This document shows positions 1-20,000 of a stretch of 20,000 bases of DNA, one piece after another. Both the position numbers and the translations under genes were made by a program. Positions within the stretch are counted from its first letter, which is position 1; every line of letters starts with the position of its first letter. Below the pieces are notes generated by a model. The model saw nothing but the letters and a program-made list of their open reading frames with translations. It made no database searches and was not told the origin of the DNA. Source of the stretch: Elsinoe ampelina (lineage: Eukaryota); assembly GCA_010093995.1 (NCBI GenBank), contig ML992502.1, positions 2,218,727 to 2,238,726 on the forward strand, in the 5' to 3' direction.

Positions 1-3000
1 GAGCTAGCGCTAAGACTATACTACGCTAATATAGCTCCTATAGAAAGTATAGCCGACACGGGAAATAATGCTATATATAAAGTACTTCTTGCTTATATTA
101 CTTAGCTTAAGAATATACTTAGTAGTTGCTTTCTAGTTATAGCGCTAGTACTACGTAGTTGTTTTAATAATATATAACTTAACGATATTTGTCTAATAAA
201 CCTACAAATTATAAGAGAGTATATACTAAACTTATACTACCTCGAGGCCTTAGAGTCTACTATTATAGCAAGAGTTAAGGAATTTATATATATATATAAT
301 AACATCTTTAAGATAGTACTAAATATCTACTTTAAAGAAGTTACTTAGTGCTATATAGCTACTAGCTACTTAAAAGGTTAGCTTAGCTATAATTAAAACT
401 CGTATACTAAGAGCGCTAGCGTTATACCCTTATAAAGCCTAATATAGTTCTAGCTTTAGGACTAAGCCTAGAGTCCTAAAAACTATAGTAATAGCTACGT
501 AGTAAAGTTCTTTACATCGCGCTAGTGTAGAGAATAGTTAATTACTAATTTCTATACGTTCCTTAATAGTTATAAGTTCTATATTAAGATAGTGCCGCTC
601 CTAGATAATGTCTACTATATATAGCTTATTACCTATACTACGCCGGAGCTACGCTTAGAAGTACTCTATTAAGGGAACCTACCTCTAATTAAGGTAGAAC
701 TTCTAGTATATCTATTCTATTTAGAGTAGAACCTACCGGGCTACTTTAACTCTATATAGGAGTAGTATAAGTATAATGCCGGAGAGAAGACTAATACTTT
801 TACTAAAAGGCCTTACTATAATAAAGACTATAAGGGCTAAAAGGACTAGTAGAGTAGCGCTAACGCTACCTCTATAGCTCCCCGACCTAGTGCTACTTAC
901 TCTTATAATATCTATAAGAGCCTAGACTATTAGGTGCTAAACTATCTCTAGAAGGACTTTTCGAAACGGATAGTGTTCTTACGTTTACTAATCCTAAGTA
1001 ACTCTAGCGCGATATAGGATATATACTAAATTTGTACTAACGTTATAGTTAACCTACCTAAAGGCCCTATCGAAGGGGTAGCTCTAATAGATAGTAGCGC
1101 CGATAGTAACTTTATTAGCTAGCATTTTGCTATATGCTATTATATCGCTATCGACCCTCTAGTAGTATACTAAGTACGTAGCTTAGACAAATACGAATTA
1201 ACTACCTATAGATATATCGAGTTAGTCTTTACTATTAAGGATAGTAAAGAAACAACGTAGGCGTTACGCTAGCGGTTTAAAAGTGTTAATATAACTAGTT
1301 ATAATCTTATATTAGGCCTACTATAGCTATTGTCCTATAACTCTAAGATTTAGTAGAGCGCTAGTATATAGAGGCATTATACTAGCGCTATATAGGTGTT
1401 AATCCTAGATGTACTCTTCTTCTCCTAGGAGCTAAATTAGTCTAACGCTTAGCTCTATCTAGTATATATATACTAGGACAAACCCGGCGCCCTAACTCTA
1501 CTATACTAGCTTAATAACTATATAGATGTTTTTAATAAGAGTATAGTAATAGTACTACTAGGTAATAATTTTACTTACTCTATTAATATTAAAGAGAGAG
1601 AATAGCTACCCTAGGGACCTATCTACTCCCTTAGTAAGAAGGAGCTTTAGGTACTTTAAAAGTATATAGATAATAGCTTAGTAATAGGTTAACTCTAGTA
1701 TAGTACTAGCTCTACGAGGTCTTCTATTCTATTTATTCTAAAGAAGGATAGTTCGCTATGCCTATATATTAACTATTATAGGCTAAATAATGTTACTATT
1801 AAGAACTATTACCTCTTACCTCTAATTGCTAAGATGCTTAATTATATTAAGAATATATACTTATTTAGTAAGCTAGACCTTATAGATGTCTACTATAGGG
1901 TATATATCTAGTATAGCGATAAATAGAAGATAGTATTCTATTATTACTATAGCTACTTTAAATATACTATTATACCTTTTAGCCTTACTAATGCCCTAGC
2001 TACGTTCTAGACTTATATATATTAGTACTTAAGTAGCTTAGTAGACTACTACTATATTATATACCTAGATAATATTCTAATCTACGCTAGTAACAAGTAA
2101 GAGTATTACTAGGCTATTAGAAGCGTACTAAACTACCTACGTAAGAATAGCCTCTATATAAAACTAAAGAAGTATATCTTCGAGGTAATATAGGTAGTAT
2201 TCCTAAGCTACGTTATTAGTAGTAATAGCGTTATAATAGAGTAGCTCTAGGTATAAGCCGTCGCTAACTAGCCTACCTCTACTAGCCTTAAGGAGTTATA
2301 AACCTTTCTTGGATTTGCTAATTTCTACTATTAATTTATTAAGAGCTTCTCCTATGTAGTACTACTACTAACTATACTTACGCGAGAGTTAGTCTAAGAG
2401 AAGTAAGTAGGCCTATTTCTATAGAGTAACGATATAGTATAAGCCTTCGATAGGCTTAAAGCTACCTTTATATAAGCGCCTATACTATGCTACTTTTTAT
2501 TAAGTAAGCCTCTCTAGCTCGAGACTAACGCTTTAGATTTTATACTTTCTAGAGTAATCTCCTAGTAAAATAAAGATAATACTCCTACGTAACACTAGTA
2601 CTCTATAGCGTTCTAGTCCTAGAAGCTATAAGGTATAGAACTAAACTATACTACCTATAACAAAGAGCTTCTCGCTATTATAGAAGTAATATAGTACTAG
2701 CGCTAGTACTTACTTAGTACTACTACTCTAATTAAAGTCCTCTTTAACTATAATAACCTTAAGTATTTCCTAACTACTAAGAAGCTTTTATAATACTAGG
2801 CCTACTACGCTAAGGTACTAGCATAGTTTAATATTATTATCTAGTACTATAGTAGAAAGACTAACCTAGCTAATAGCCTATTATGTAGGCCTAACTACTA
2901 TAAGCATAAAGAAGATATATAGGAAGAGTACTATATATTAGTTTCTCTCTTAAAGTAAGTATTATAAACGTAAAGTAAAGAAGTTATACCTATATCTATT

Positions 3001-4974
3001 ATAGACAAGGAACCTAAGGCTAGTAAGGCCCGAGAAGATAGTAATAAAGCTAGTATAGCTTATATGCCTTAAACTACTCTCTAACGTAATACGCTTATAT
3101 AATTCTAGCGTACCTCTAGAATAGCGCCTATAAGTCTACCTATTACCTTAGAAGCGCTATAGCTATACTAAGAAGAGTTAGAGCCTCTAGAGTAAGAAGA
3201 GTAGTACTTAGAAAGCACTTACGTAAATCTCTCTCTAAGCCTAACTAATAATGTTAAATTAGAACAATATATATCTACTTTAGTATCCTAGGACATGCTA
3301 CTACTTACCTAGGAAATAATAGAGAGCTAAGGGCATAAAGATAATATAACGCCTATATAACTCCGGGATACCTTTAGTAGAAAGCCCGCTATAATTTTAG
3401 ACTAGAGTTAGTAGATTATATACCTCTATACTATATAAGTACTAGCGGATAAGACTATATATATCTCTTCTACTCCTATATTACTCCGGGACCTTATCTA
3501 CGTAATATAGTAAAGAGATACTTTTACTTATAGTAAGAAATAGAAACTTCTAAAAGAGAAAACTTTAACTAGTAATAGTACTACCTCTAAGTAGAGCCTA
3601 TCTAGTAATAGCTTACTCTAGAATAGAGATAGAGTATATATCCTAGAAGAAACTACCTTAAGAGTAGAGCTTATATAGTATAATTATAATAACTCCTTAG
3701 GGAGTTACTTTAGCTATATAAAGACTTACTTTAATATAAGGAGGAAGTACTAGTAGCTAGGTATATCTATCGCTACGAAAGTGTATATTAAGCGCTATAA
3801 TAGCTACTAAAGGCATAAGGCAATATAGTATAAGCCTTATAGCCTCCTATAACTCTTACTAATTCTACTTATACTTAAGGCCTTATAATACTAGTCGCTC
3901 GATTTTATTACTAGCTTACCCTTAGTAGAGCTTTAGCCTAGTATTATTATAGATACAATTATTATATATGTCTATTACTTATCTAAGTTTAGTATCTATA
4001 CGCCGACGTTAACTAAGCTTCATACTAGGGACTTTACTAATCTATTTAAAATAGATATTATAACGTTATTTAGAACGCTAAAGATACTAGTCTTAGATAG
4101 AGAGTCTATCTTTATAAGCAAATTCTAAAGTGCGCTATACTAGCGCTAGAAGGCGTAATATAAGCTTAGTACTATTTTCTATCTATAGATAGATAGCTAA
4201 ACTAAAAGGCAAAACTAGACGCTAGAGTAGTACCTACGCTACTTTATCGACTATTACTAGATAGACTAGCTATACTAGGTTAAGTAGGCGCAATTCGTAT
4301 ATAATAATACATATTAAGTATTACTATATACTACGCTAGTGTAGTTCTTATTTACGTAGGAGATATACCTACCTAATAATATTAAGGCGCTAGTGCTACC
4401 TAGCTATACGCTAGTATATAACCTATTAGTTAATAACTAAGTATAATCTATTACCGAAACGCGCGTAGAGCTTGCCCGACACCTACGTAAAGTATAGAAA
4501 GACTAAGCGCTAGCCTATAATAGAGGTTAATAAGTAAAAGTCTTTTATAATAGCGACAAGGTTATACTTAGCACTAAGAACCTTTGTAGCGCTAGACCTA
4601 GCTATAAGCTATTAGCTAAGTATATTAGCCCGTTTATAATTGTATAACGAATTAGTATATAGGTGTATAAGCTACGCTTACTAGATAAAATAAAGCTAAT
4701 CTATAACGTCTTTAACGTTACGCTACTAGAGCTATATAGGCGTAGTAAGGGTATACACCTACTACCCCTAGAGGTAGAAGAGTAGGAAAAATATATTATT
4801 AAATATATTTTTAGTAAGAGCTATACTAGTACCTCGAAGGCGCTATACTACCTAGTAAAGTAGTAGAGTTACTCTATAGAAGAAAGTATATAGAAGCTAG
4901 TAAAAAACCTTATAAATGCTAAGGAATTGCTATACAAATATAAGGTAGCTTAGTATAAGTATAGCGCTAGCTAA
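1..4974 (+). pseudogene. gag-pol polyprotein relic of copy A (frame +1, many RIP-derived stops; 3' end approximate)
   Basis: RIP-altered residues in brackets. Zinc knuckle (C)NI(C)KS(P)D(H)(W)xxN(C) at 904-945; PR ALIDS(G)ADSNFIS at 1081-1119; RT ILFx(P)KKD(G)SL..L(C)x(D)Y..LN at ~1725-1790 and YLD(D)ILIY at 2062; RNase H ET(D)A(S) at 2521 and NYTT(H)(D)KELLAI at ~2644; IN SLDFIT(G)LP at ~3895, V(S)DR(G)SIF at ~4090, T(A)F(H)(P)(Q)(T)D(G)(Q)T(E)RQN at 4171; YI(G)PF at 4621; chromodomain YLVK(W)x(G)YSxEESx(W)(E)(P)V(E)NL at 4849-4911. Confidence 0.93.
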
Positions 4975-5166
4975 ACACTCTAGACACACTTAGGATTAAT
5001 AAGTTAAAGGCACAAATTTTAAAGTAAAGAGTACCTAGGCGTAGCGCTAGATTAGCTCGGAGTATTATTAGCTTATATAGGGAGAACGCTAGCGTAGCAA
5101 AAACTATAGAATTATACTAAAGCGAAAAGGGTATAGCATAGGTATAGCACTCTAGCTCTCTCTACC

Positions 5167-6037
5167 TTAACTATCTATATTATCTACTTTAGTCTTATTC
5201 TTATTATTCTCCTTAACACTATTAATATGCCTAGTTAGTGCCCTTATAGCATTATTAATCGCCTACGTAGTAGTAACTTACTTATTCTTAGTAACTACCT
5301 ATAAGAAAGTTAGTATAGCTTAGGCGTTATAGAGGCGCACTTCTAGACTTATATAATTAACTAAAGTCTTAAGCATAAAGCTAGTATTACTAATTATACC
5401 TAGGCGTAGCGCCTTTACTAGCTGCTTAGTATTAACTTTAGGGGCGGAGAGCGTAGTAATAGCGCTATTATAGCGTAAAGAAGTTATACTATTACTATTA
5501 CTCTTATTAACTACCTTACTCTTACCTTTAGCGTTAGACTTGCTCTATATATGCTTAGCGCTAGTCTTCTCGTATATATAGTTAGTATAGGTAGTAATCT
5601 AGCGCTTTAGAAGAATAATGTCCTTCTTAGAAGTAATAGCGTCGTTATAGAGTAGTATATATATAGTAAAGTATTTGTCCTAGAGCTTCTTAGTAGTAAC
5701 TTAATCCTTAGAGTTAAGCTTAGTAGGCTACTAAAGTTAGTATAAAGTAGACATAGCGTAGGCGTAGAGTATACCTAGTAGTAGTGTTTATTACTATAAC
5801 TATAACAATTATAGTAGGTAGCCTTAGCCTTAGTAATCTAGTAGAGAGGATCTTTAATAGGGAGTATACTATCTTTAAGCTAGAGGTACTTATTAATAGC
5901 AATAGCGTAGCGTAAGCATAGTATAGAGTACTAGTCCTAGTTAGTAAAATTGCTCTTATAAGGTCTATAAAGAGTTAGCGCCGGCGTAGCGTAAGTACTA
6001 TATATAATACTTACTCCTTAGGAACTTTAGAGGCTAT
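5167..6037 (-). pseudogene. Putative spliced antisense accessory gene inside element A (4 exons, about 240 codons, Cys-rich zinc-cluster-like N-terminus), RIP-damaged
   Basis: Three short intron-like segments on the minus strand: 6014-5965 (GTAAGT..GCTAAC..TAG, 50 nt), 5774-5728 or 5731 (GTATAC..ACTAAC..TAG, 47 or 44 nt) and 5352-5299 (ATAAGT from GTAAGT..ACTAAC..TAG, 54 nt). Removing them joins one frame from ATA (inferred ATG) at 6037. Its internal stops are all TAG/TAA, explainable as RIP products of CAG/TGG/CAA. The true stop position is uncertain. Confidence 0.7.
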
Positions 6038-6347
6038 AGTTGTTAAAGTATATAAGCGTATAGAAGGTAAGCTAGCGTAGAGCTAGAATAATAAAGAGAA
6101 AAAAAAATTTACTATATAGGTACTACGCTAGGTTAGTAAATAAACAACTAAATAGATAAGCCCGATAGCTAGATCTATAGTAGCGTAGGCTTAGTATATA
6201 CACTAAGTCTCCCCTACTAGCCCTTAGGCTAGTAAGACCTAGTCTATACTATATAGCACCTAAAATAGGTTACTAGTATAGTGTTAGACCTACGTAAGTA
6301 TAGAGCTAGCGTTAAGTAGAATACTTATATAAAGGAAGTATTATAAA

Positions 6348-6380
6348 GGAGAAAAGAAGAAGAGAAGGAAAAGAGAAAGA
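6348..6380 (-). promoter_or_regulatory. Pyrimidine-rich (CT) tract upstream of the putative antisense gene; candidate promoter/5' UTR element
   Basis: Plus strand GGAGAAAAGAAGAAGAGAAGGAAAAGAGAAAGA is a CT-only tract on the minus strand, about 310 nt upstream of the inferred start. CT boxes are common in filamentous-fungal promoters. Function is inference only. Confidence 0.3.
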
Positions 6381-6680
6381 TATATATCTAGCTCTAAGCT
6401 AAGACTAATCCGGAGAATAATAGGTAGTAGTATATAATAATAAATAGATTCTTATATATAAAAATAACAACGTAAGAGCGCTATATTCTATATATAAAGA
6501 ATTATACTATTATTACTATATCTAGTATACAAAGAATGTTATAGGCTACTATAGGTGTACTATATATACGAAAAGTACGCTACGCCTAAGAGGCGCTAGT
6601 AAGATGCTCTTTCCTAGTTTTCTCCTATACTAGGTTTTCTAGGTTTTATTAAGGCTTATAGACGTAAGAGCGTGCCTCTT

Positions 6681-6696
6681 AAAGGGGAAGAATAAT
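6681..6696 (+). other. Polypurine tract of copy A
   Basis: AAAGGGGAAGAA lies just upstream of the 3' LTR start at 6697. Confidence 0.85.
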
Positions 6697-6894
6697 TATA
6701 AGAACTAACGTAGTAAGTACGCTACGCTAGCTTACTCTAGAGATACTATTCTCTATAGAAGAATAAAACACTCCTTACCTATAGAATAGATAGAGTAGAG
6801 ATTAGTCTTATAATAATCGAGAGTATACTAGTATAACGCCTATTCTACTTCTATACACTTGTCTTCCTAGCTCTAATATTCTACCTTCGTTATA
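6697..6894 (+). repeat. 3' LTR of copy A (198 bp; TGTA..TACA ends mutated to TATA..TATA)
   Basis: Same length as, and differing by transitions from, the reverse complement of 18141-18338. Confidence 0.95.
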
Positions 6895-9800
6895 TATAGC
6901 GCCTTTAGAGTACTAGTATAGCCCTTACCGAGGATATGTTTAATAATATATTCTTGTTGCCCTTCTACCTCTAGAGGTAGTAGGTATATACCCTTACTAC
7001 GCCTATATAGCTCTAGTAGTGTAATATTAAAGACGTTATAGATTAGCTTTATTTTATCTAGTAAGTATAGCTTATATACCTACGTACTAATTTGTTATAT
7101 AATTATAAACGGGCTAATATACTTAGCTAATAGCTTATAGCTAGGTCTAGTGCTACGAAGGTTCTTAGTGCTAAGTATAACCTTGTCGCTATTATAGAAG
7201 ACTTTTACTTATTAATCTTTATTATAGACTAGCGCTTAGTCTTTCTATGCTTTATATAGGTGTTAGGCAAGCTCTATATACGTTTCGGTAATAGATTATA
7301 CTTGGTTATTAACTAATAGGTTATACGCTAGCGTATAGCTAGGTAGCGCTAGTGCCTTAATATTATTAGGTAGGTGTATCTTCTATATAAATAAGAACTA
7401 CGCTAGCGTAGTATATAGTAACGCTTAATACGTATTATTATATACAAATTACACCTACTTAACCTAGTATAGCTAGTCCGTCTAGTAATAGTTAATAAAG
7501 TAGCATAGATACTACTCTAGCGTCTAGTTTTACCTTTTAGTTTAGCTATCTATCTATAGATAGAAACTAGTACTAAGCTTATATTATGCCTTCTAGCGCT
7601 AGTATAGCGCACTCTAGAATTTGCTTATAAAGATAGACTCTCTATCTAAGACTAGTATCTTTAGCGTTCTAAACAACGTTATAATATCTATTTTAAATAG
7701 ATTAGTAAAGTCCCTAGCGTTAAGCTTAGTTAATATTAGTATATAGATACTAAACTTAGAAAAGCAATAGACATATATAATAATTATATCTATAATAACG
7801 CTAGGCCGGAGCTCTATCGAGGGTAAGCTAGTAATAAAATTAAGCGACTAGTATTATAAGGCCTCGAGTATAGGTAGGATTAGTAAGAGTTATAGAAGGC
7901 TATAAGGCTTATACTACGTTGCCTTATACCTTTAGTAGCTGTTATAGCGCTTAATATATACTTTCGTAGCGACAGATATACCTAGCTACTAGTACTTCTT
8001 TCTTATATTAAGGTAGGTCTTTATATAGCTAAAGTAACTCCCTAAGGAGTTATTATAATTATGCTATATAAGCTCTACTCTTAAGGTAATTTCTTCTAGA
8101 ATATATACCCTATCTCCGTTCCGGAGTAAGCTATTACTAGATAGGCTCTACTTAGGGATAGTACTATTACTAGTTAAGGTTCTCTCTTTTAGAAGTTTCT
8201 ATTTCTTACTATAAGTAAAAGTATCTCTTTACTATACTATATAGATAAGGTCCCGGAGTAATATAGGAGTAGAAGAGATATATATAGTCTTATCTACTAG
8301 TACTTATATAGTATAGAGGTATATAATCTACTAACTCTAGTCTAAAATTATAGCGGGCTTCTTACTAGAGGTGTTCTAGAGTTACGTAGGTGTTATACTA
8401 TCTTTATGCTCTTAGCTCTCTATTATTTCCTAGGTAAGTAGTAGCACGTCCTAGGATACTAAAGTAGATATATATCGTTCTAATTTAACGTTACTAGTTA
8501 GGCTTAGAGAGAGATTTACGTAAGTACTCTCTAAGCGCTACTCTTCTTACTCTAGAGACTCTAACTCTTCTTAGTATAGCTATAGCACTCCTAAGGTAAT
8601 AGGTAGACTTATAAGTGCTATTCTAGAGACATACTAGAATTATATAAGCGCGTTATATTAGAGAGTAGTTTAAGGCATATAAGCTATACTAGCTTTATTA
8701 CTGTCTTCCTAGGCCCTACTAGCCTTAGGTTTCTTATCTATAATAGATATAGGTATAACTCCTTTACTTCGTATTTATAATACTTACTCTAAGAGAGAGA
8801 CTAACGTATAGCGCTTTTCTTATATATCTTCTTTATACTTATAGTAGTTAGGCCTACGTAATAGACTATTAGCTAGGTTAGTCTTCCTACTATAGTACTA
8901 GATAACAATGTTAAACTACGCTAGTACCTCGGCGTAGTAGGCCTAGCGTTATAAAAGCTTCTTAGTAGTTAGGAAATACCTAAGGTTATTATAGTTAGAG
9001 AGGACTTTAATTAGAGTAGTAGCGCTAAGTAGGTACTAGCGCTAGTACTACGCTGCTTCTATAATAGTAAGAAGCTCTTTGTTATAGGTAGTGTAGTTTA
9101 GTTCTACACCTTATAGCTTCTAGAACTAGAACGCTATAGAGTACTAGTATTACGTAGGAGTATTACTTTTGTTTTACTAGGAGATTACTCCGGAGAGTAT
9201 AAAATCTAAAGTATTAGTCTTAAGCTAAAGAGGCTTACCTAATAAAAAGTAGTATAGTATAGGCACTTACGTAAAGGTAGCTTTAAGTCTATTAAAGGCC
9301 TATACTATATTATTACTCTATAGAAATAGGCCTACTTACTTCTCTTAGACTAACTCTTATATAAGTATAGTTAGTAGTAGCGCTACGTAGGAGAAGTCCT
9401 TAATAAATTAATAGTAGAAATTAGTAAATCTAAGAAAGATTTATAACTCCTTAAGGCTAGTAGAAGTAAGCTAGTTAGTAACAGCTTATACCTAGAGCTA
9501 CTCTATTATAACGCTATTACTACTAACGATATAGCTTAGAAATACTACCTATATTGCCTCGAAGATATACTTCTTTAGTTTTATATAGAGGCTATTCTTA
9601 TATAGGTAGTCTAGTATACTTCTAATAGCCTAGTAATACTCTTACTTATCGCTAGCGTAGATTAGAATGTTATTTAGGTATATAATATAGTAGTAGTCTA
9701 CTAAGCTACTTAAGCACTAATATATATAAGTCTAGAACGTAGCTAGGGTATTAGTAAGGCTAAAAGGTATAATAGTATATTTAAAGTAGCTATAGTAATA

Positions 9801-10396
9801 GCGGAATACTGTCTTCTATTTATCGCTATGCTAGATATATATCCTATAGTAGGTATCTATAAGGTCTAGCTTACTAAATAAGTATATACCCTTAATATAA
9901 TTAAGTATCTTAGCAATTAGGGGTAAGGGGTAATAGTTCTTAATAGTAACATTATTTAGCCTATAATAGTTAATATATAGACGTAGCGAACTATCCTTCT
10001 TAGGAACGAATAGGATAGAAGACTCTATAGAGCTAGTACTATACTAGAGTTAACTTATTACTAAGCTATTATCTATATACTCTTAAAGTACCTAAAGCTC
10101 CTTCTTACCGAGGGAGTAGATAGGTCTCTAGAGTAGCTATTTTCTCTCTTTAATATTAATAGAGTAAGTAAAATTGTTACCTAGTAGTACTATTACTATA
10201 CTCTTATTAAAAACATCTATGTAGTTATTAAGCTAGTATAGTAGAGTTAGAGCGCTAGGTTTATCCTAGTATACATATACTAGATAGAGCTAAGTATTAG
10301 GCTAATTTAGCTCCTAGAAGAAGAAGAGTACATCTAGGATTAACACCTATATAGCGCTAGTATAATGCCTTTATATACTAGCGCTCTACTAAATCT
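6895..10396 (-). pseudogene. pol relic of copy B (end of PR, RT, RNase H, IN, first half of chromodomain)
   Basis: Reverse-complement homology to A 1346-4847. Breaks just before the YLVKW chromodomain motif at the A LTR junction. Confidence 0.93.
10392..10396. repeat. Left target-site duplication of element C (AATCT)
   Basis: AATCT also occurs at 16589-16593. The uninterrupted sister copy A has a single AGATT at 1346-1350. Confidence 0.95.
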
Positions 10397-10600
10397 TAAT
10401 TACGACTAGTAAGATAAGAGAGTTAATTACGTCTATTCGTTAAGATATCGAGACTTAGAAGAAGAAGAAGAAAAGCTAGTATATAAAGCACATATAATAT
10501 TAAGGGCGAAGTAGCTAGAAGCCTAAGCTATAATACCGAGATTATATAACTAATCTAAACTATATCCTAACTAAATCTAGTTCGTATCTATCTTATATTA
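10397..10600 (-). repeat. 3' LTR of element C (204 bp)
   Basis: Direct repeat of 16385-16588. Ends TAAT..ATTA fit RIP-converted TG..CA. Confidence 0.95.
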
Positions 10601-10614
10601 CTACCTTCTCTCTT
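10601..10614 (-). other. Polypurine tract of element C
   Basis: Minus strand AAGAGAGAAGGTAG abuts the 3' LTR. Confidence 0.8.
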
Positions 10615-13600
10615 AAGCACGTTTACCCTTAAACACTATTATATATTATTTATTAATCTATTTCGGCCTTAGCTTATCCGTGTAAGAGTCTAGATAGTTA
10701 CGTAGCACGTTAGCTACTCCTTTAAGATTATTAATTAGCTACTAGATAAGATTCTCTAGATAGCTCTTCTAGCTTATATAAGTAACTAGTTTACTATGTA
10801 GTATATATATATTAACTACGTCGTCTACCTTATATTTCTCTTTACTATTAACTTCTATTAGAGGTAGTTCCTTAAAGGCTTAGCCTAGTAGAGGGTTGTT
10901 TAGATACTTAGTAAGTAGATTAGTATAAAACATAGAGTGGATTTGTTATAGCGCAGCTAGTAGATCTAGCTTATATACTAATAGTAACTACTTCTTAAGG
11001 ATCTTATATAGACTAACGTGTTTTAGTAGTAGCTTTAGATTGCTATATAGCTAGAGGTTCTTTGTTAATAACTATACTAAATCGCCTACCTCGAACTCTA
11101 TTAGCTAGCGGTGCTTATTAGCTTATTCTACTATACGTAATTAGGCAATAGTAAGGTTAGCTTTAGCAATAGCTAGCGCTTCTTCTAGTTGTTTAGCAAG
11201 TGCGTAGATGTCGACCTTATTTAGCTTAGCTCTTGTTAATAGTGCGTCGAAAGAGAGTTAAAAGCTTAGCCTTAGCTTATATTCTCTAGTAACCTCGAAT
11301 AGTAATAGCTTAGTACTCTCTAATAGGTTAATATTAGCGGAGAACTCTACTACTAGTAGAATAAGAGTCTAATTACTAAAGTGTGTAGCGTATAAATAGA
11401 TAACTCGCTTAAACTTGCAATTTATAACCTCTAATTAGCTGTCTATCTATAGATGCCCTATAGTAGATAGTTTAATAGTAATCTTTAGGATCTAGTAGAG
11501 TCTCTTCTATACGTCGCTAACGAACTAAGGGCCGCAATCCGAGGTGATACTATCTAGTAGGCTATATAGTTTCTACATATAGAAGAATAATAGCTTAGCT
11601 ATCTTAAATATAGAGGTTTCTTCTTCTCCCTAGAAGTAAGAGATTAAGTGTCGTTCCTTAGATAAGCAATCGATAACATATAGTACTACGTTATAGCTAT
11701 CTACTAGAGGTAGGCTAGTAACGAAGTCTATAGTAATATATTACTAGGGCCTAACTAGAATAGGCAATAGCGATAGAGAGCCGGCTAGTAAGCTATAGTA
11801 AGCCTTTAAGCGCTTATAGTTATAATAGTTAGTAACGAACCTCTTAACGTTAGAATCGCACTTAGGGATATAGAAAGTAGACTTAATTATAGTAGCTATC
11901 TTAGTGGCCCCTTCGTGTGTGTAATTCTTTAATATATAAACTCCTTAGATAACTTTTGTAGCTATAGAGAAAGGCATAATTAATCGGCTAGCGGCGTATA
12001 GTATTTCCTTCTCGATTATAACATTAGTCGACAGTAACTATTTCCTCTTTAGGAAGGCTTCTATTATATAGTAGACGCCGCGAACTGTCTCGAAGTTAAA
12101 GTCTTATAAGTTAGCTTTAGCTACTTCGTTAAAAAGGAGTAAAGGCTCTTCTACGGCAGAGATAGGTACTATATAGGTACCTAGCTCGCGAGCCGAAATA
12201 GGCGGCGAAATAGGTAGCGAAATAGGTGCTAAACTAGATCTTAGTTTAGCTTAGATTAGTAATCTAGCTTAGATACGACCTAGATTTAGTTTGTTAATAA
12301 TGCGCTAATCTAGCACTTTATATAGTAATAGTGTCTAGCGTAGATTAGAGTCTTCCTTCGAACGTAGTACATCTCTATTCCTCCTTATAAGTGCGTCGGC
12401 CTTACTATTAGTAGCGCTAGGCCTATATATAATCTTAAAGTTAAACTACGTAAGGTAGAGAGCCTAGCGTACTTAGTAGCGTAATAGCTTCTAAGTCTTT
12501 ATAAAATACATTAAGGATTAGTAGTTAGTAAGGATATAAATAGCCTTATCGGATTAAGTACTTATAAGCTTAGGGGCCTATTCCTTAAAGGCTTAGACAA
12601 TTACTAATAGCTCCTTATTATAGATTATATAGTTACGTTCGGCTTTGCTTATAGATTTACTAAAGAAGGCAACGGGCTAGAGAATGTTAGAATTGTTATA
12701 TTACGATAGAATCCTAGTAGTAGTAGTATTAGAGGCGTTAGTCTCGATAACTACTTACTTCGAGCAATCGAAGTGCGCTAAGATAGAGACACTTATAATA
12801 GTATACTTTATATAGTTAAACGTAGTAGTGCACTTATTATTCTATAGCGTAGCGTCCCTCTTAAGTAGGTTATTTAATAGCTTAGCGATAGTGCTAAATC
12901 CCTTAATAAAGCAGTAATAGTAGCTATAGAAACTAATAAAGCTTCTTACCTAAGTAGTATTACTAGAGGCTAGTTATTTCTAGGCTTATATAGCTTTAAC
13001 CTTCTTTAGATCTATCTTAACTCTATCTCGACTAATAATAATACTAAGATACTTTACTTCTATTAGGTAGAACTTACTCTTCTTAATATTAGCGTTTAGG
13101 CCTAAATCGTAGAGATGTTAGAGTACTAGCTTAATATACTTAGCGTGCTCTTAGCAAGTGTCGTTAGTATAGATAAGAATGTTATTAAGATAGATTAATA
13201 CGAAGTGCTTAAGTATGTTAACGAAGTTGTAATTTATAAATCTCTACTATACTACGGAGGCGTTAGTAAGGCTAAATAGTATTACTAACTACTTAAAGTT
13301 ACCTATGTATATAGAGAATATAGTAAGGTCTTTACTATCGACAGAGTTATAGAGGCAGTAGAAGGCTTAATAGATATTAATCTTACTAAAATATTTAGCT
13401 TTACTTACGCGCGTAAGTGTTTCTTTAATAAGAGGCAAAGGATAGACGTTTTACTTAGTTACCTTGTTAAGGCCGTAGTAATCGACGCAAAGGTAGAGTC
13501 TACTACTAGGCTTATAAACAAAGAGAATAGGCAAGGAATAGCTAGCTAAGCTTAGCGTAATAAAGCCTTTATTAAGGTACTTACGGATAAATAGCTCTAC

Positions 13601-14710
13601 TATATTAAGCTTCTCTAGTAATAGGCGGCGAAGGAGTTTAGTACGTAGTAGTTTAGCTCTATCCTTAAGTATAATTCGATTGTTAAAATCTAGCCGATAT
13701 AGAGGAAGCATATTAGATTACTCTTTAGAGAAGATATTAGTAAACTTCTATAGCTCTTCTAGGAGAACTACTATAGAGTCTAGTTCTAGCTTAGAAGCTA
13801 TCTAGTAGTAGTCCTTAATATTCTTTACTAAGATTATAAACACCTTATTCTTTTAGTATTTAGCTACTAATACAAAGGCAGCGGCGCTAATAAAAGTAAT
13901 AGTTAGCTCTTCTTACTTAGTGTTACTTACGTAGGTAAGTACGTAGGAGAACTTATATATTAGCTAAGTGCTATAAGAGATTAGCTTAAACTCTTCCTAA
14001 TTTAGCTTAAAGTTCGACCTAAGAGCTAGTAGTCGATATAGTCTAGTTTGTCCTATCTTAGTAGCCGAGCTAGAACCTAGTTCGCGAGTTAAATTAGAAC
14101 TAAACTAGTTCTAAACTAGAGTAGTAGCTTTACTAAGCTAGATTCCTAGATCTAAGCCGGGCTTAGATCTAGATTCTAGCCTTTTAATTAGCTATAGTAG
14201 CTCCTACTTAACGACCGTTAGTAAAAACTCTTCTTTGTATATAACTTAGCTATGCTTATAGTCGATAGTAGCCCTGTTAGCCTTAAGCCATCCGAGGCTA
14301 AGAATAATATTAAATCGGCTAATATCTATAATACGGAAGGTAGTAAGGTTATTTAGCTTACTAGAAATAGTAGTAGTAAAAGGGACACTATTAGTGACTT
14401 ATTCTATCGGAACACTATTGTAAGCCTAAAGCTAAATAGAGCTAGCTAGTGCCACTAGATAGCTAAAACTCTTTAGCTTATTAAGAATGTTATAGTTAAC
14501 TATAGCGCTAATAAGCGCGCTAGTGTTAATAAAGGCTTAAAGTGTAATAGTGTAAGAGTAGTTATAGGGCTCGTAAATAGTAATAGGAGTTATAATAGCG
14601 GGGATATAGTAGCTAACGACGCTATTTAATAACTATATACCTCCGGATCTATCTCGAATTACTCTTGTTTTACTAGAGAATAGAACTTGTCCTCTAGCTA
14701 CTTATTTCTC
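10613..14710 (-). pseudogene. pol relic of element C (PR, RT, RNase H, IN, chromodomain); ends approximate
   Basis: PR AFI(D)T(G)A from 14536. The supplied ORF 13451-13711 is a surviving RT fragment (PILFVYKP..LYLCVDYYGLNKVTK). IYL(D)(D)ILIY at ~13170-13196; IET(D)AS at ~12732-12749; IT(M)DFVT(G)LP at ~11710-11746; SITSD(R)GP(Q)FVS at ~11516-11551; LST.GH(P)(Q)(T)D(G)(Q) at ~11435-11470; chromodomain-like P.IEV(D)(G)(E)EKY(E)VDDV..S(W)K(G)Y at ~10720-10865. Confidence 0.92.
12194..12226. repeat. 3 x 12-bp tandem repeat (CGAAATAGG core) in the RNase H-integrase linker of C
   Basis: CGAAATAGG at 12194, 12206 and 12218; frame-preserving, minus strand reads xPIS repeats. Confidence 0.8.
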
Positions 14711-16050
14711 TAGCTAGATAGGTCGGTAGACTTATAATCTATTTCGGGGTTGAACTAAGGCTAAACTAGATCTAGTTTATAAGCCGAACTAGTATCGACT
14801 TAGTTACTTAATTCGGCTAAGCGATCCTAGAGCTATTATATCTCTTTTATAGCGCTAATACATACGGGATATATAGTAGCGTAAGCGGCCTTCTCTAAGG
14901 CACTAGCTATACACTTAGTAGAGATATAGCTAAGCTTACCGTATATGTAACAGGTAAGTATTAGAGCTAGACAAAAGAGCTATAGAGCTTCTTCGGTAAT
15001 AGAGTAAAAGGTAGCTAGGGCAGTAGGCGCGGAAGTAGAATAAGGTACATAGATTAGTACTATAGTAGCGCGGCTTATAGCTAGGCTAGAGCGTAAGGCC
15101 TAAGTGTGCTTAGTAATAAAGTTACTCTATTAGATATTATAGTTAGTAGCGTAGGCCTTTATAATAAAAGTAAAGAGGTTATTAGTGTCGAAGTTAATAA
15201 GGGCGACGTGTAGTTTATTAGATACCTTCTAACGTAACTAGTAGAGCTATTTGTCCTTAGCAATCTTAGCGCAAAGGGCATACTTATTAAATTCGCTAAT
15301 AAAGAAGTTAAAAGAGATATTACGCTAGAAGAGGCTAGCGAACTAGGCGCGCGTAGTAGCCTTATAGTTAGAGTCTTTAAAGCGCTAGGCTAAGATACTA
15401 AGGGCGGCTTTAACGTTAAGAGTATTATTACTAGCGAAGTCTATAATAAGAGTATATACTTCGCTAGAAAGGCGTAAGTAGAGATAGATAAACTAGGTTA
15501 CCTTAGTAGAGAAATAGTTAGTATTAGCGTGTATCTTGTTCTTTATCTAGTACTTAAAAACCTCGAACTGTTCTAGAGTGCTACTAGAGAAGATAGTAGG
15601 GTCTAGTATCTTTTCGAATAACGTAGTACTACGTATAGAGAGAGCTAGTATAGTACGTTCTATCTCGGCTCTTAGCTAGGCTAGTTCGGCCTTAAGTTTG
15701 CTAATATCTATAAGGTAGCGCGTAGTTTAGACAGTAAGATTGTTAGTAGTGCTATTAGTAGTATTTAGTTCTATTAGAGCGTTATCTAACTAGTTACGTA
15801 GGTCGAGAGCGTCGGTATATACTAAGTTATATATAGTAACCTATTTGTTATAGGTGGACTTAATAAAGGCAAAGGCCTTACGTAGAGTAGTTATCTTATC
15901 TATCTCTTATAGCCTCTTCTTAAGGTTAGTATCGCTAAGGCGGATAAGGTCGTAATAGGCTAACTAGACTAGTTTATTATTGTTATTAGCGAGGAATAGA
16001 GGGATCTTACTTACGTAGTAATTATCTTTACTATAGTTAGAGTAAGCTAT
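14698..16050 (-). pseudogene. gag relic of element C (start and stop inferred)
   Basis: Capsid-like DPTIFS(G)..EQFEVFK..NKIHAN...F...IYLY(S)RLS(G)E at ~15460-15603. Zinc knuckle CYI(C)GKL(G)(H)ISTKC at 14952-14911 in the same frame. Confidence 0.85.
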
Positions 16051-16370
16051 ACTCGGGGTAGTTAGTTATAAATAAAACAGTGTAAAAAGTTAACGTATAA
16101 CAAAGGGAATATTAAAAATTTTTAGCCGGTAGCCTACTTCCTTTAAGAGTCGTCTATAACTCGACTTATTACCTTTTTCTTATATCTTTAAGGTTTATAG
16201 TATTAACTTACATAGTAGTAGCGAGGATCTATTATAGTGTACGTAGGAACTATAGTTATAATAGCTTCTTCTTCGATTCTTTAATTCTTCGTAAGTAATA
16301 GTTAGTAGTTACGTAAGTAGTAGAATAACTAGATAATTTAATAGCTCCGTCGCTTAGTTATAGTTATTCG

Positions 16371-16382
16371 AAGTCTCGATAT
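16371..16382 (-). other. Self-priming type primer-binding site of element C
   Basis: Minus strand ATATCGAGACTT, 2 nt inside the 5' LTR edge, is perfectly complementary to the LTR-internal 12-mer at 10445-10456 (RIP-altered at 16433-16444). Confidence 0.8.
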
Positions 16383-16384
16383 AG

Positions 16385-16588
16385 TAATTACAACTAGTAA
16401 GATAAGAGAGTTAATTACGTCTATTCGTTAAGATATTAAGACTTAAAAGAAGAAGAAGAAAAGCTAGTATATAAAGCATATATAATATCGAGGGCGGAGT
16501 AGCTAGAAGCCCGGGCTACGATGCTAAGATTACATAACTAATCTAAACTATATCCTAACTAAATCTAGTTCGTATCTATCTCGTATTA
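16385..16588 (-). repeat. 5' LTR of element C (204 bp)
   Basis: Direct repeat of 10397-10600, followed by TSD AATCT at 16589-16593. Confidence 0.95.
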
Positions 16589-18140: not shown

Positions 18141-18338
18141 TGTAACGAAGGTAGAATATTAGAGCTAGAAAGACAAGTATATAGGAGTAGAACAGGCGTT
18201 ATACTAGTGTACCCTCGATTGTCGTAAGACTAATCTCTGCTTTATCTATTCTATAGGCGAGAAGTGTTTTATTCTTCTATAGAGAATAGTATCTCTAGAG
18301 TAAGCTAGTATAGCGTACTTACTACGTTAGTCCTTACA
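18141..18338 (-). repeat. 5' LTR of copy B (198 bp, intact TGTAA..TTACA termini)
   Basis: Canonical TG..CA ends; reverse complement of 6697-6894. Confidence 0.96.
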
Positions 18339-18633
18339 ATTCTAGAGTAACTAATTACATCTATAATTACACTATAAAGGACAGATATAAGGTTACTAGA
18401 ATTATAGAACCTTATAAGAAGCTATTCTATAGTAATACCTTACTTAGTATTAAGAGTTAGAGAACTATTAATATTATAGCTCTTTACAAAGGAAAGCCTA
18501 TAACTATCTATCTTATAAAAGTAGCCTATATACTATTAATTATAACTAATCTAGTTAGCCTTAGGAGGTTTATTAATAGTAGAGTCTACTAGAATACTTA
18601 AACTATAAAGATTAGCTATAAAGGAAAAGTACT

Positions 18634-18800
18634 NNNNNNNNNNNNNNNNNNNNNNNNNNNNNNNNNNNNNNNNNNNNNNNNNNNNNNNNNNNNNNNNNNN
18701 NNNNNNNNNNNNNNNNNNNNNNNNNNNNNNNNNNNNNNNNNNNNNNNNNNNNNNNNNNNNNNNNNNNNNNNNNNNNNNNNNNNNNNNNNNNNNNNNNNNN
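18634..18800. other. Assembly gap (167 N)
   Basis: Run of N. Both flanks read as the same Copia pol in the same orientation. Confidence 0.99.
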
Positions 18801-19764
18801 NTTAATTACCTTCTAACTACTATAGTTAGTAGTAAACTAACTCTAACTAAGCCTAGTTTAGCTTAACTAATTTATCTTAGGTCTCTATATTAGACTTATA
18901 AGCTATTAAATACTTAGTAGATTATATTAAGGAGCTCTAATACTAAACTTGCTATATTAAAGCTATTTAAGAGAACTACCTTTAATATTATTATTAACAG
19001 ATTTACTAGCTATAATAAGGTAAGATATATAAGCTACTTTACTTATAGGACTACTAACTATTAACTAGTTACTACCTATACTTATAGATATAAGATTCAT
19101 AAAATCTATATTAAGATAATTACTTATATTAAAAGTAATCTTAGCTTTAAAATTAGATTTCTTAGGAGTAATAATAAGAGAGCCTTTAGCCTTAAATTTA
19201 CTATCTTCCTAGATAGTAAAGGAATCTATTATAAGCTATCTACTCCCTATACTTAAGCTTAGAATAGTTATAATAAAAGAATAGGAGCTATACTATTAAG
19301 GAGAGTAAGGGCAATTACTATCTTTACTAATCTACTAAGGGAATTATACTCTAAACTATATAGATTAGTAGCCTATCTAATTAATAGAATACCTCTTAAG
19401 AAGCTAGACTAGAAGACTTCTTTTAAGCTAGTTTATAGATGCTCTCTATTAGTTACTTATCTTAGGCTACTTAGATGTAAAGCTTATACTTTAGATAAGC
19501 TTATTATAAGTAGTAACAAGCTTACACTAAAGGCTTATATTAGCTATCTAGTTAGCTATAACTTAACTAATATCTTTAGGATCTTTATACTAGCCTCTAA
19601 GAAAGTTATTAGAACAAGAGATATTAGATTTAATAAAACTTAGTTCTATAAGCTAGAGGAATAACCTTAGCTAAAACTAATTAGATTACTTAATCTACTA
19701 AGGCTCCTATAGAAGATTAATAAATCTAAAAAAGTATATAAAGTAGAGGGAACAACTAAACTAA

Positions 19765-19860
19765 ATCTAGTTTAGAATCTAGTTTAGTATCTAGTTTAGT
19801 ATCTAGTTTAGAATTTAGTTTAGAATCTAGTTTAGTATCTAGTTTAGCATCTAGTTTAGA
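19765..19860 (+). repeat. 8 x 12-bp tandem repeat ATCTAGTTTAG(A/T/C) in the Copia IN-RT linker
   Basis: Units start at 19765, 19777, 19789, 19801, 19813, 19825, 19837 and 19849. Confidence 0.92.
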
Positions 19861-20000
19861 TACTATCTTAGACTCTAAGTTAGAACAATCTAGATTAAGA
19901 GCTAAGCCTATCTTAGTAGCTAGATAAGGGTTACCCTATTACACTAGATTAGTTACTACCTCTATTAGACTAATTAGATAAGGCTATTCTAGATCTAAAC

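Follow-up and report, generated by a model that had tools for sequence, protein, structure and literature searches.

We propose that an antisense gene with introns, carried inside a Ty3/Gypsy chromovirus, is the best reading of positions 6037 to 5167 on the minus strand of the stretch of Elsinoe ampelina DNA analysed here (contig ML992502.1; 20,000 nt, referred to below as the window), and we put the probability of this reading at roughly 0.6. As judged from the letters, what is left there would be a small protein-coding gene, some 223-258 codons long, killed by repeat-induced point mutation (RIP) and interrupted by at least two short spliceosomal introns, probably four.

The carrier is one of three nested Ty3/Gypsy copies (A, B and C) that were recognised in the window by repeat comparison and by Pfam searches of six-frame translations in which stops were written as X. 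Element A, which holds the antisense gene, lies on the plus strand; it starts before position 1 and ends at 6894. Its RIP-mutated gag-pol (1..4956, +, Pfam domains in frame +1) has its 5' end to the left of the window, and in pol we find RVT_1 (nt 1795-2184), RT_RNaseH (2440-2823) and SH3_Tf2-1 (4555-4737), together with RT_RNaseH_2. The Pfam families Chromo and rve (integrase core) were not reported for A pol at E ≤ 0.01; a chromodomain-like tail running to about 4956 was recognised by eye only. A purine run at 6681..6696 (+), the polypurine tract (PPT), stands immediately before the start of the 3' LTR (6697..6894, +, 198 nt), which was aligned to the 5' LTR of copy B (18141-18338, -). The terminal TG and CA are kept in the LTR of copy B and both ends read TA in A, and contigs of other copies, followed past 6894, carry the sequence that comes after B's 5' LTR. 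Given the order of reverse transcriptase, RNase H and integrase-SH3 domains, the LTR and the PPT, with the chromodomain seen by eye, the carrier is a Ty3/Gypsy chromovirus; its length is about 7.3 kb.

Copy B belongs to A's family and lies on the minus strand, where it descends from 18338 to 16584 and then from 10398 to 6895, split by the nested C. Its part at 6895..10398 (-) is an inverted match to 1344-4847 of A: the two are 91% alike over 3504 nt, 297 of their 302 differences are transitions, and no indel separates them. The match stops at 4847/6895 because A inserted into the chromodomain of B and cut the copy there. Element C (10397-16588), nested in B, is of a different Gypsy family and has its gag-pol on the minus strand; its LTRs (10397-10600 and 16385-16588, about 204 nt) are 91% alike. 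The C pol frame reaches to about 20 codons from C's purine tract and LTR, and C is therefore without an extra region, as a previous examination of the bare sequence (the sequence-only reading) had said. The same reading had put the extra DNA between pol and the PPT of A at about 1.7 kb, in good agreement with the 1,724 nt that we measured between the end of A pol (~4956) and 6681-6696.

All of this DNA bears the marks of heavy mutation. The window is AT-rich, with GC values of 0.16-0.38 per 500 nt, TGA is nearly missing from it (4 and 2 occurrences on the two strands) and the CA/TG dinucleotides are scarce (180 and 208, compared with 4002 TA), a combination that is the signature of RIP. No known gene was mapped to any ORF of at least 80 codons in the window. 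The process also leaves a trace at CG: between A and B (1344-4847 vs 6895-10398), 65 pairs of CG<->TA dinucleotide differences occur among the 302 differing positions, and other copies, seen in a DNA sequencing run (X1), also show such paired changes, for example at 5532/5533, 5643/5644 and 6163/6164. The mutation process therefore acts not only on CpA but also on CpG, on both strands; the window retains 526 CG, and CA and TG are almost gone from it.

Stop-codon density was tried as a coding test and dropped, the RIP-mutated true frame of A pol having 140 stops in 1652 codons (8.5%) versus 164 and 235 in other frames (9.9% and 14.2%). Since stop density cannot single out the coding frame in RIP DNA, we trained a codon-usage log-likelihood ratio (LLR) instead, for which the RIP-mutated frames of A and C pol were set against the five remaining frames of each; pol was the only training material. 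When cross-trained and applied to 130-codon windows, it picked the right frame in 42 of 51 cases (trained on C, tested on A) and in 39 of 39 (trained on A, tested on C). For A pol itself (+, frame +0) the coding-likeness ends near 4900-4950.

Within the extra DNA the score singles out the minus strand. The best-supported coding block, exon 3 (5341..5730, -, 130 codons), has an LLR of +33.5, and the remaining five frames range from -39.5 to +0.8; not one of 1875 wrong-frame pol windows reaches this value, and it also lies above all 375 true pol windows of equal length. Exon 2 (5775..5964, -, 190 nt) scores +11.4, the top of its six frames, a level reached by 0.3% of 1975 wrong-frame windows of 63 codons. 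Exons 4-5, read through, score +12.2, again the top of six frames and reached by none of 2000 wrong-frame windows. In all three scorable exon blocks, then, the best of the six frames is on the minus strand and is the frame of the sequence-only reading; exon 1, with 23 nt, is too short to be scored. Training on a single set keeps the frame for exon 3 (27.3 with A only, 38.0 with C only) and for exons 4-5 (11.6 and 11.1), and exon 2 is clear with A only (13.2) and weaker with C only (5.5 vs 5.8 for a plus-strand frame). Over the whole window, scored 60 codons at a time, the peak of the antisense gene (21.2) matches the highest values of true coding sequence (22.5-24.0). Within the elements, stray antisense peaks do not exceed 9.2, and elsewhere the score tracks the gag-pol frames of the three copies. 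No coding-like frame appeared in the rest of the extra DNA when the sliding LLR was run over 6690-6180 and 5184-4957. Between the end of A pol and the stop of the antisense gene lies a spacer of 210 nt (4957..5166) with no coding-like frame on either strand, presumed to be made up of the 3' UTRs of two converging units.

The blocks of coding-like sequence are joined by candidate introns, all on the minus strand. Intron 1 (6014-5965, 50 nt, phase 2) has GTAAGT, CTAAC and TAG and matches our strict motif, GTRNGY..CTAAC..YAG over 40-65 nt, which was searched on both strands of the 20-kb window (40 kb of strand). Intron 2 (5774-5731, 44 nt, phase 0; GTATAC..CTAAC..TAG) lies where the coding-likeness changes frame: on the sliding map frame 1 is positive from 5964 to about 5845 and frame 0 from 5754 to 5190, the switch falling at this 44-nt segment. 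Two further candidates match the strict motif as well, namely intron 3 (5340-5299, 42 nt, phase 0; GTGCGC..CTAAC..TAG), with a weak donor, and intron 4 (5281-5219, 63 nt; GTAAGT..CTAAC..TAG). The sequence-only reading had described three minus-strand introns of 44-54 nt in phases 2, 0 and 0; the signals and the phases hold, the sizes come out at 42-50 nt, and the fourth segment, of 63 nt, is an addition. At 42-63 nt, and going by their motifs, the four segments look like the short spliceosomal introns of filamentous fungi (GT, CTRAY, YAG, about 40-70 nt). The gene changes frame twice within 250 nt, each time at canonical intron signals, and we take these changes for introns rather than indels because A and B show no indel in the 3504 nt over which they match. 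Introns 3 and 4 are in frame and are therefore not needed for the frame of the antisense gene. Read through, they give 0.03 and 0.07 LLR per codon, with 2 in-frame stops each, against 0.18-0.51 per codon in the exons, and these low values are a weak hint that they too are introns.

Could such a pattern arise by chance? The extra DNA might be an ordinary long non-coding 3' region in which RIP, by making the sequence TA-rich, has mimicked introns and a low-stop frame. RIP does make TAG, CTAAC (from CTGAC or CCAAC) and GTAAGT (from GTGAGT); CTAAC is frequent, with 56 occurrences on the minus strand of the window, 7 of them in minus 5100-6100, and low-stop frames arise randomly, as in exon 2, where the proposed frame has 5 stops in 63 codons and another frame has 0 in 62. 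However, the strict motif has 8 matches in the window, of which 4, with 3 distinct acceptors, fall in minus 5100-6100, and dinucleotide-preserving shuffles of this 1 kb gave a mean of 0.151 acceptors and reached 3 in none of 2000 trials, so that the cluster of intron signals exceeds chance. The score of exon 3, above every wrong-frame and true pol window, and the absence of signal in the rest of the extra DNA also speak against a coincidence, an explanation that was already disfavoured and that we hold to be improbable.

If the antisense gene is accepted, its parts can be laid out from the start downwards. Exon 1 (6015..6037, -, 23 nt), read directly from the sequence, opens with ATA at 6037-6035, presumably a former ATG that underwent a RIP-type change of TpG to TpA. 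After exons 2 and 3 comes exon 4 (5282..5298, -, 17 nt), between candidate introns 3 and 4, and exon 5 (5167..5218, -, 17 codons, LLR 0.51 per codon) ends with TAA at 5169-5167. Removal of the three introns proposed earlier leaves 735 nt, that is 245 codons beginning (ATA)ASKVPKE, which bears out the single consistent frame of about 240 codons that had been predicted, the exon LLR being best in just those frames; taking out introns 1 and 2 alone gives 259 codons, and taking out all four gives 224. The copy in the window has no stop-free ORF with an ATG start: with the terminal codon included, 15, 13 or 11 in-frame TAA/TAG remain when two, three or four introns are removed, and there is no TGA. 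Stops are expected in the gene after RIP, A pol being likewise riddled with them. Since the window has hardly any TGA, it is no test that all of them are of the RIP type.

Upstream of the gene lies a region with no coding-like frame (6038..6680, -). On its minus strand a 36-nt pyrimidine run (6380-6345) is followed by TATAAT (6345) and TATAAG (6329). Pyrimidine runs are often found at promoters in filamentous fungi, and we infer from these motifs that the run and the TATA-like boxes may form the promoter of the antisense gene. Read on the sense strand, 6345-6380 is a 36-nt polypurine run. It precedes the true PPT by 300 nt and might be an additional site for priming the plus strand or, on the other strand, a pyrimidine-rich promoter box of the antisense gene. 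A motif around GCGTAGCG(TAAG) also recurs in the extra region of A, with five occurrences at 5039-6205 that fall within candidate exons and introns alike. Searches of 4800-6900 in Rfam at E ≤ 0.1 gave no match, and a tRNA scan of the window found none.

The segment is not private to A. We placed contigs of run X1 and of a run from a second organism (X3) on 4300-6950 at 80% likeness or more, dividing the region into 30 bins. Run X1, which may be the sample from which the window was assembled, gave 2017 short contigs covering 30 of 30 bins, of which only 558 were at least 99% alike, and 278 of its 279 variant places are transitions. The second organism contributed 245 contigs, which fill 29 of 30 bins and have transversions at 36 of 400 variant places, and single contigs bridge both the junction of pol with the segment (4725-5060) and that of the segment with the LTR (6625-6766). 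No joint that skips the extra segment was seen among the X1 and X3 contigs listed for 4300-6950. Summed depth is about the same at the end of pol and in the segment and is about three times higher in the LTR, contig depth not being a copy number. From the contigs we take it that the segment occupies one and the same position in many copies diverged by RIP, as well as in the diverged copies of the second organism. A handful of the X3 differences in exon 3, mapped by hand, were a mixture of silent, conservative and non-conservative changes, too few to count. Runs X5 and X8, which we guessed to be RNA, yielded no contigs on 4300-6950, a result that says nothing on expression.

These copies bear on two points raised earlier. 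The sequence-only reading had allowed that its proposal would fall if the segment were present only in this copy as an unrelated insertion, and the coverage of the segment by other X1 copies and by X3 shows otherwise. It had also proposed a separately transcribed accessory gene belonging to the whole family; of this, the intron-bearing, coding-like antisense relic and its presence in other copies are upheld by the LLR and by the X1 and X3 contigs, and the separate transcription and the accessory role stay at the level of a proposal.

We looked for relatives of the encoded protein with the read-through of exons 3-5 (188 aa, X at stops) as the query. None of 40 word candidates was a homologue, phmmer against 1.84 billion representatives returned none, and 369 and 14 pattern matches in metagenome and viral contigs contained no tblastn relative; a degenerate purine/pyrimidine DNA pattern, which allows for other RIP states, had no match in either the metagenome or the viral contigs. 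Pfam reported no domain in the antisense gene across six frames of 1-10500 at E ≤ 0.01, and the best matches of the exon translations at E ≤ 10, BBS2_N (0.073) and YMF19 (1.1), were taken as noise. A CCHC zinc knuckle or copia-gag-like motif considered in exon 2 was dropped as well, its spacing being unfit and Pfam giving it no support. Compared with the rest of the window and with an intact Gypsy polyprotein (P0001), the antisense gene showed nothing below E = 1.4; it has no likeness to gag-pol of A, B or C or to P0001 and is therefore no copy of gag or pol. RIP damage weakens all such searches, since even the integrase core and chromodomain of pol go unreported by Pfam, and the C-terminal part of A pol had a single match in the protein collection, to P0001 at 26% identity, too distant to help. 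The lysine- and asparagine-rich look of the predicted protein may itself be a product of RIP, through changes of Glu to Lys and Asp to Asn.

The absence of a protein homologue would also suit a spliced antisense non-coding RNA directed against the 3' end of the element, its coding look being incidental, and antisense transcripts from transposons are described as common in fungi in the part of the literature available to us (PMC10648671). Yet the three-base codon periodicity is strong, spans some 190 codons and holds in frames that the introns connect, which is hard to reconcile with a non-coding product, and we consider this explanation very unlikely, more so than a chance pattern.

More weight has to be given to the possibility that the segment is a passenger, that is, a host gene with introns or a foreign insertion that landed in the 3' untranslated region of the founder element and has since been copied without serving it. 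The lack of any homologue or domain that would tie the gene to a retroelement protein, or to the gag-pol of the three copies in the window and of P0001, speaks for a passenger, and a complete gene with its introns implies uptake as DNA. However, the segment and both of its junctions are retained in the diverged copies of the second organism, there are no terminal repeats or target duplication to mark a discrete insertion, and about 640 nt of non-coding DNA upstream and 210 nt downstream travel along with the gene as a whole unit. A nested insertion had been looked for through terminal or tandem repeats and was set aside, only short low-complexity matches having been found. We regard the passenger as an unlikely alternative, although a better one than either a non-coding RNA or a chance pattern.

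On the preferred reading, that of an antisense gene carried by the chromovirus, the gene would have moved as part of A's family. In the sense genomic RNA its introns would be present as reverse complements, would go unseen by the spliceosome and would be reverse-transcribed intact. Its own transcription might start from a promoter in the 640 nt between the start and the PPT, where the motifs at 6380-6324 lie, or from the antisense face of the 3' LTR. The product would be an accessory factor serving the element, as has been proposed for brtn of Boty and for the antisense ORFs of Grande and Retand, and it is by this analogy that an accessory function may be inferred.

Genes so placed have been described before. 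Additional ORFs of antisense orientation in the stretch from pol to the 3' LTR, termed aORF-3R, are reported for Grande1, RIRE2, Retand and PvRetro13, and also for Boty of Botrytis cinerea and Sclerotinia sclerotiorum; according to the portions of that source at hand they occur in most copies of an element and their function is unknown (PMC7264820). The antisense extra ORF of the Boty-like elements of Botrytis cinerea is known as brtn (Zhao et al. 2011, Virology 417:248, as cited in the accessible parts of PMC8365987, PMC4227169, PMC5987419 and PMC7264820), and the antisense ORFs of Retand mostly contain TRP28 (PF04195), for which DNA binding has been suggested in what is available of PMC11963269. 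In element A the position is that of an aORF-3R, with the end of pol at ~4956, the gene at 5167-6037, the PPT at 6681-6696 and the LTR at 6697-6894, and so is the strand, the coding unit being opposite to gag-pol in all three scorable exon blocks.

As far as these partial accounts describe it, Boty resembles element A in being a fungal chromodomain-bearing Gypsy carrier with an extra antisense gene beside gag-pol, of a class placed between pol and the 3' LTR; it differs in that the carrier here belongs to another element family (its LTR has 198 nt) and that all copies seen here are RIP-mutated, the two having been compared by description only. The plant aORF-3R elements, to judge by the same accounts, share the long region from pol to the 3' LTR with an antisense coding unit in it, present in most copies of the plant ones. 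Unlike the present case, they come from plants and mostly from non-chromovirus lineages, and the TRP28 domain of Retand (Transposase_28, PF04195) is absent from the antisense gene here, both from the exon translations at E ≤ 10 and from six frames of 1-10500 at E ≤ 0.01. Introns are not mentioned for aORF-3R in the available portions of PMC7264820 and PMC11963269, whereas the antisense gene here requires at least two for its frame. Among the papers listed by our literature search, which for brtn were those citing it, none described an antisense ORF with introns or a spliced transcript in an LTR element of fungi.

Two better-known systems offer a parallel of another sort. Retroviral antisense genes, HBZ of HTLV-1 among them, lie at the 3' end, have a spliced form and are transcribed from the side of the 3' LTR. 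HBZ resembles the antisense gene here in its antisense position at the 3' end of an element that replicates by reverse transcription; in contrast to it, HBZ belongs to a human retrovirus and encodes a known bZIP protein, and the two have no sequence relation. Antisense-intron indicator cassettes, laboratory constructs that score retrotransposition, carry an intron in the sense orientation relative to the RNA of the element and in the antisense orientation relative to the marker. They work by the principle invoked in the sequence-only reading, whereby an intron lying antisense to the RNA of the element stays unspliced in the genomic RNA. The gene here is a natural one and has its introns on the same strand as itself, opposite the element RNA.

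The layout being already in print for a few plant and fungal elements, the antisense gene of A is a further example and not a new kind, possibly a distinct variant by virtue of its introns. In the Elsinoe ampelina genome the gene is dead, all copies seen carrying RIP-type transitions, and as a fossil it is of comparative rather than functional value. That value would lie in the scarcity of such cases, antisense accessory genes of LTR retrotransposons being few and brtn the only fungal one found in our literature search; were this another fungal case, with introns and no sequence relation to brtn, the layout would seem to have arisen repeatedly. A wider proposal, which is conceivable and which we think rather doubtful as a whole, holds that a chromovirus of at least two fungi has had a lineage-specific antisense intron gene since before their split, taken up as DNA and kept for serving the element, and that this is the second fungal case, unrelated to brtn. 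If true, this would be the first case in which the frame of such an antisense accessory gene depends on splicing, as far as the literature covered goes, and it would mean that retroelements can keep intron-bearing cargo for a long time when the cargo points backwards. For annotators, the case is a reason to inspect the antisense strand of long regions between pol and the LTR.

Some minor features lie at the right edge of the window. At 19452-19649 (+), an integrase SH3 domain of the Copia type (SH3_retrovirus, E = 1.3e-07) marks a fourth RIP-mutated retroelement, and just behind this Copia-like fragment, at 19740-19895, stands a tandem array of a 12-nt unit in about 9-13 copies. Just outside the 5' LTR of copy B there is a run of 168 N (18634-18801), either a gap or a stretch withheld, inside very AT-rich DNA, the GC content of 18501-19000 being 0.16.
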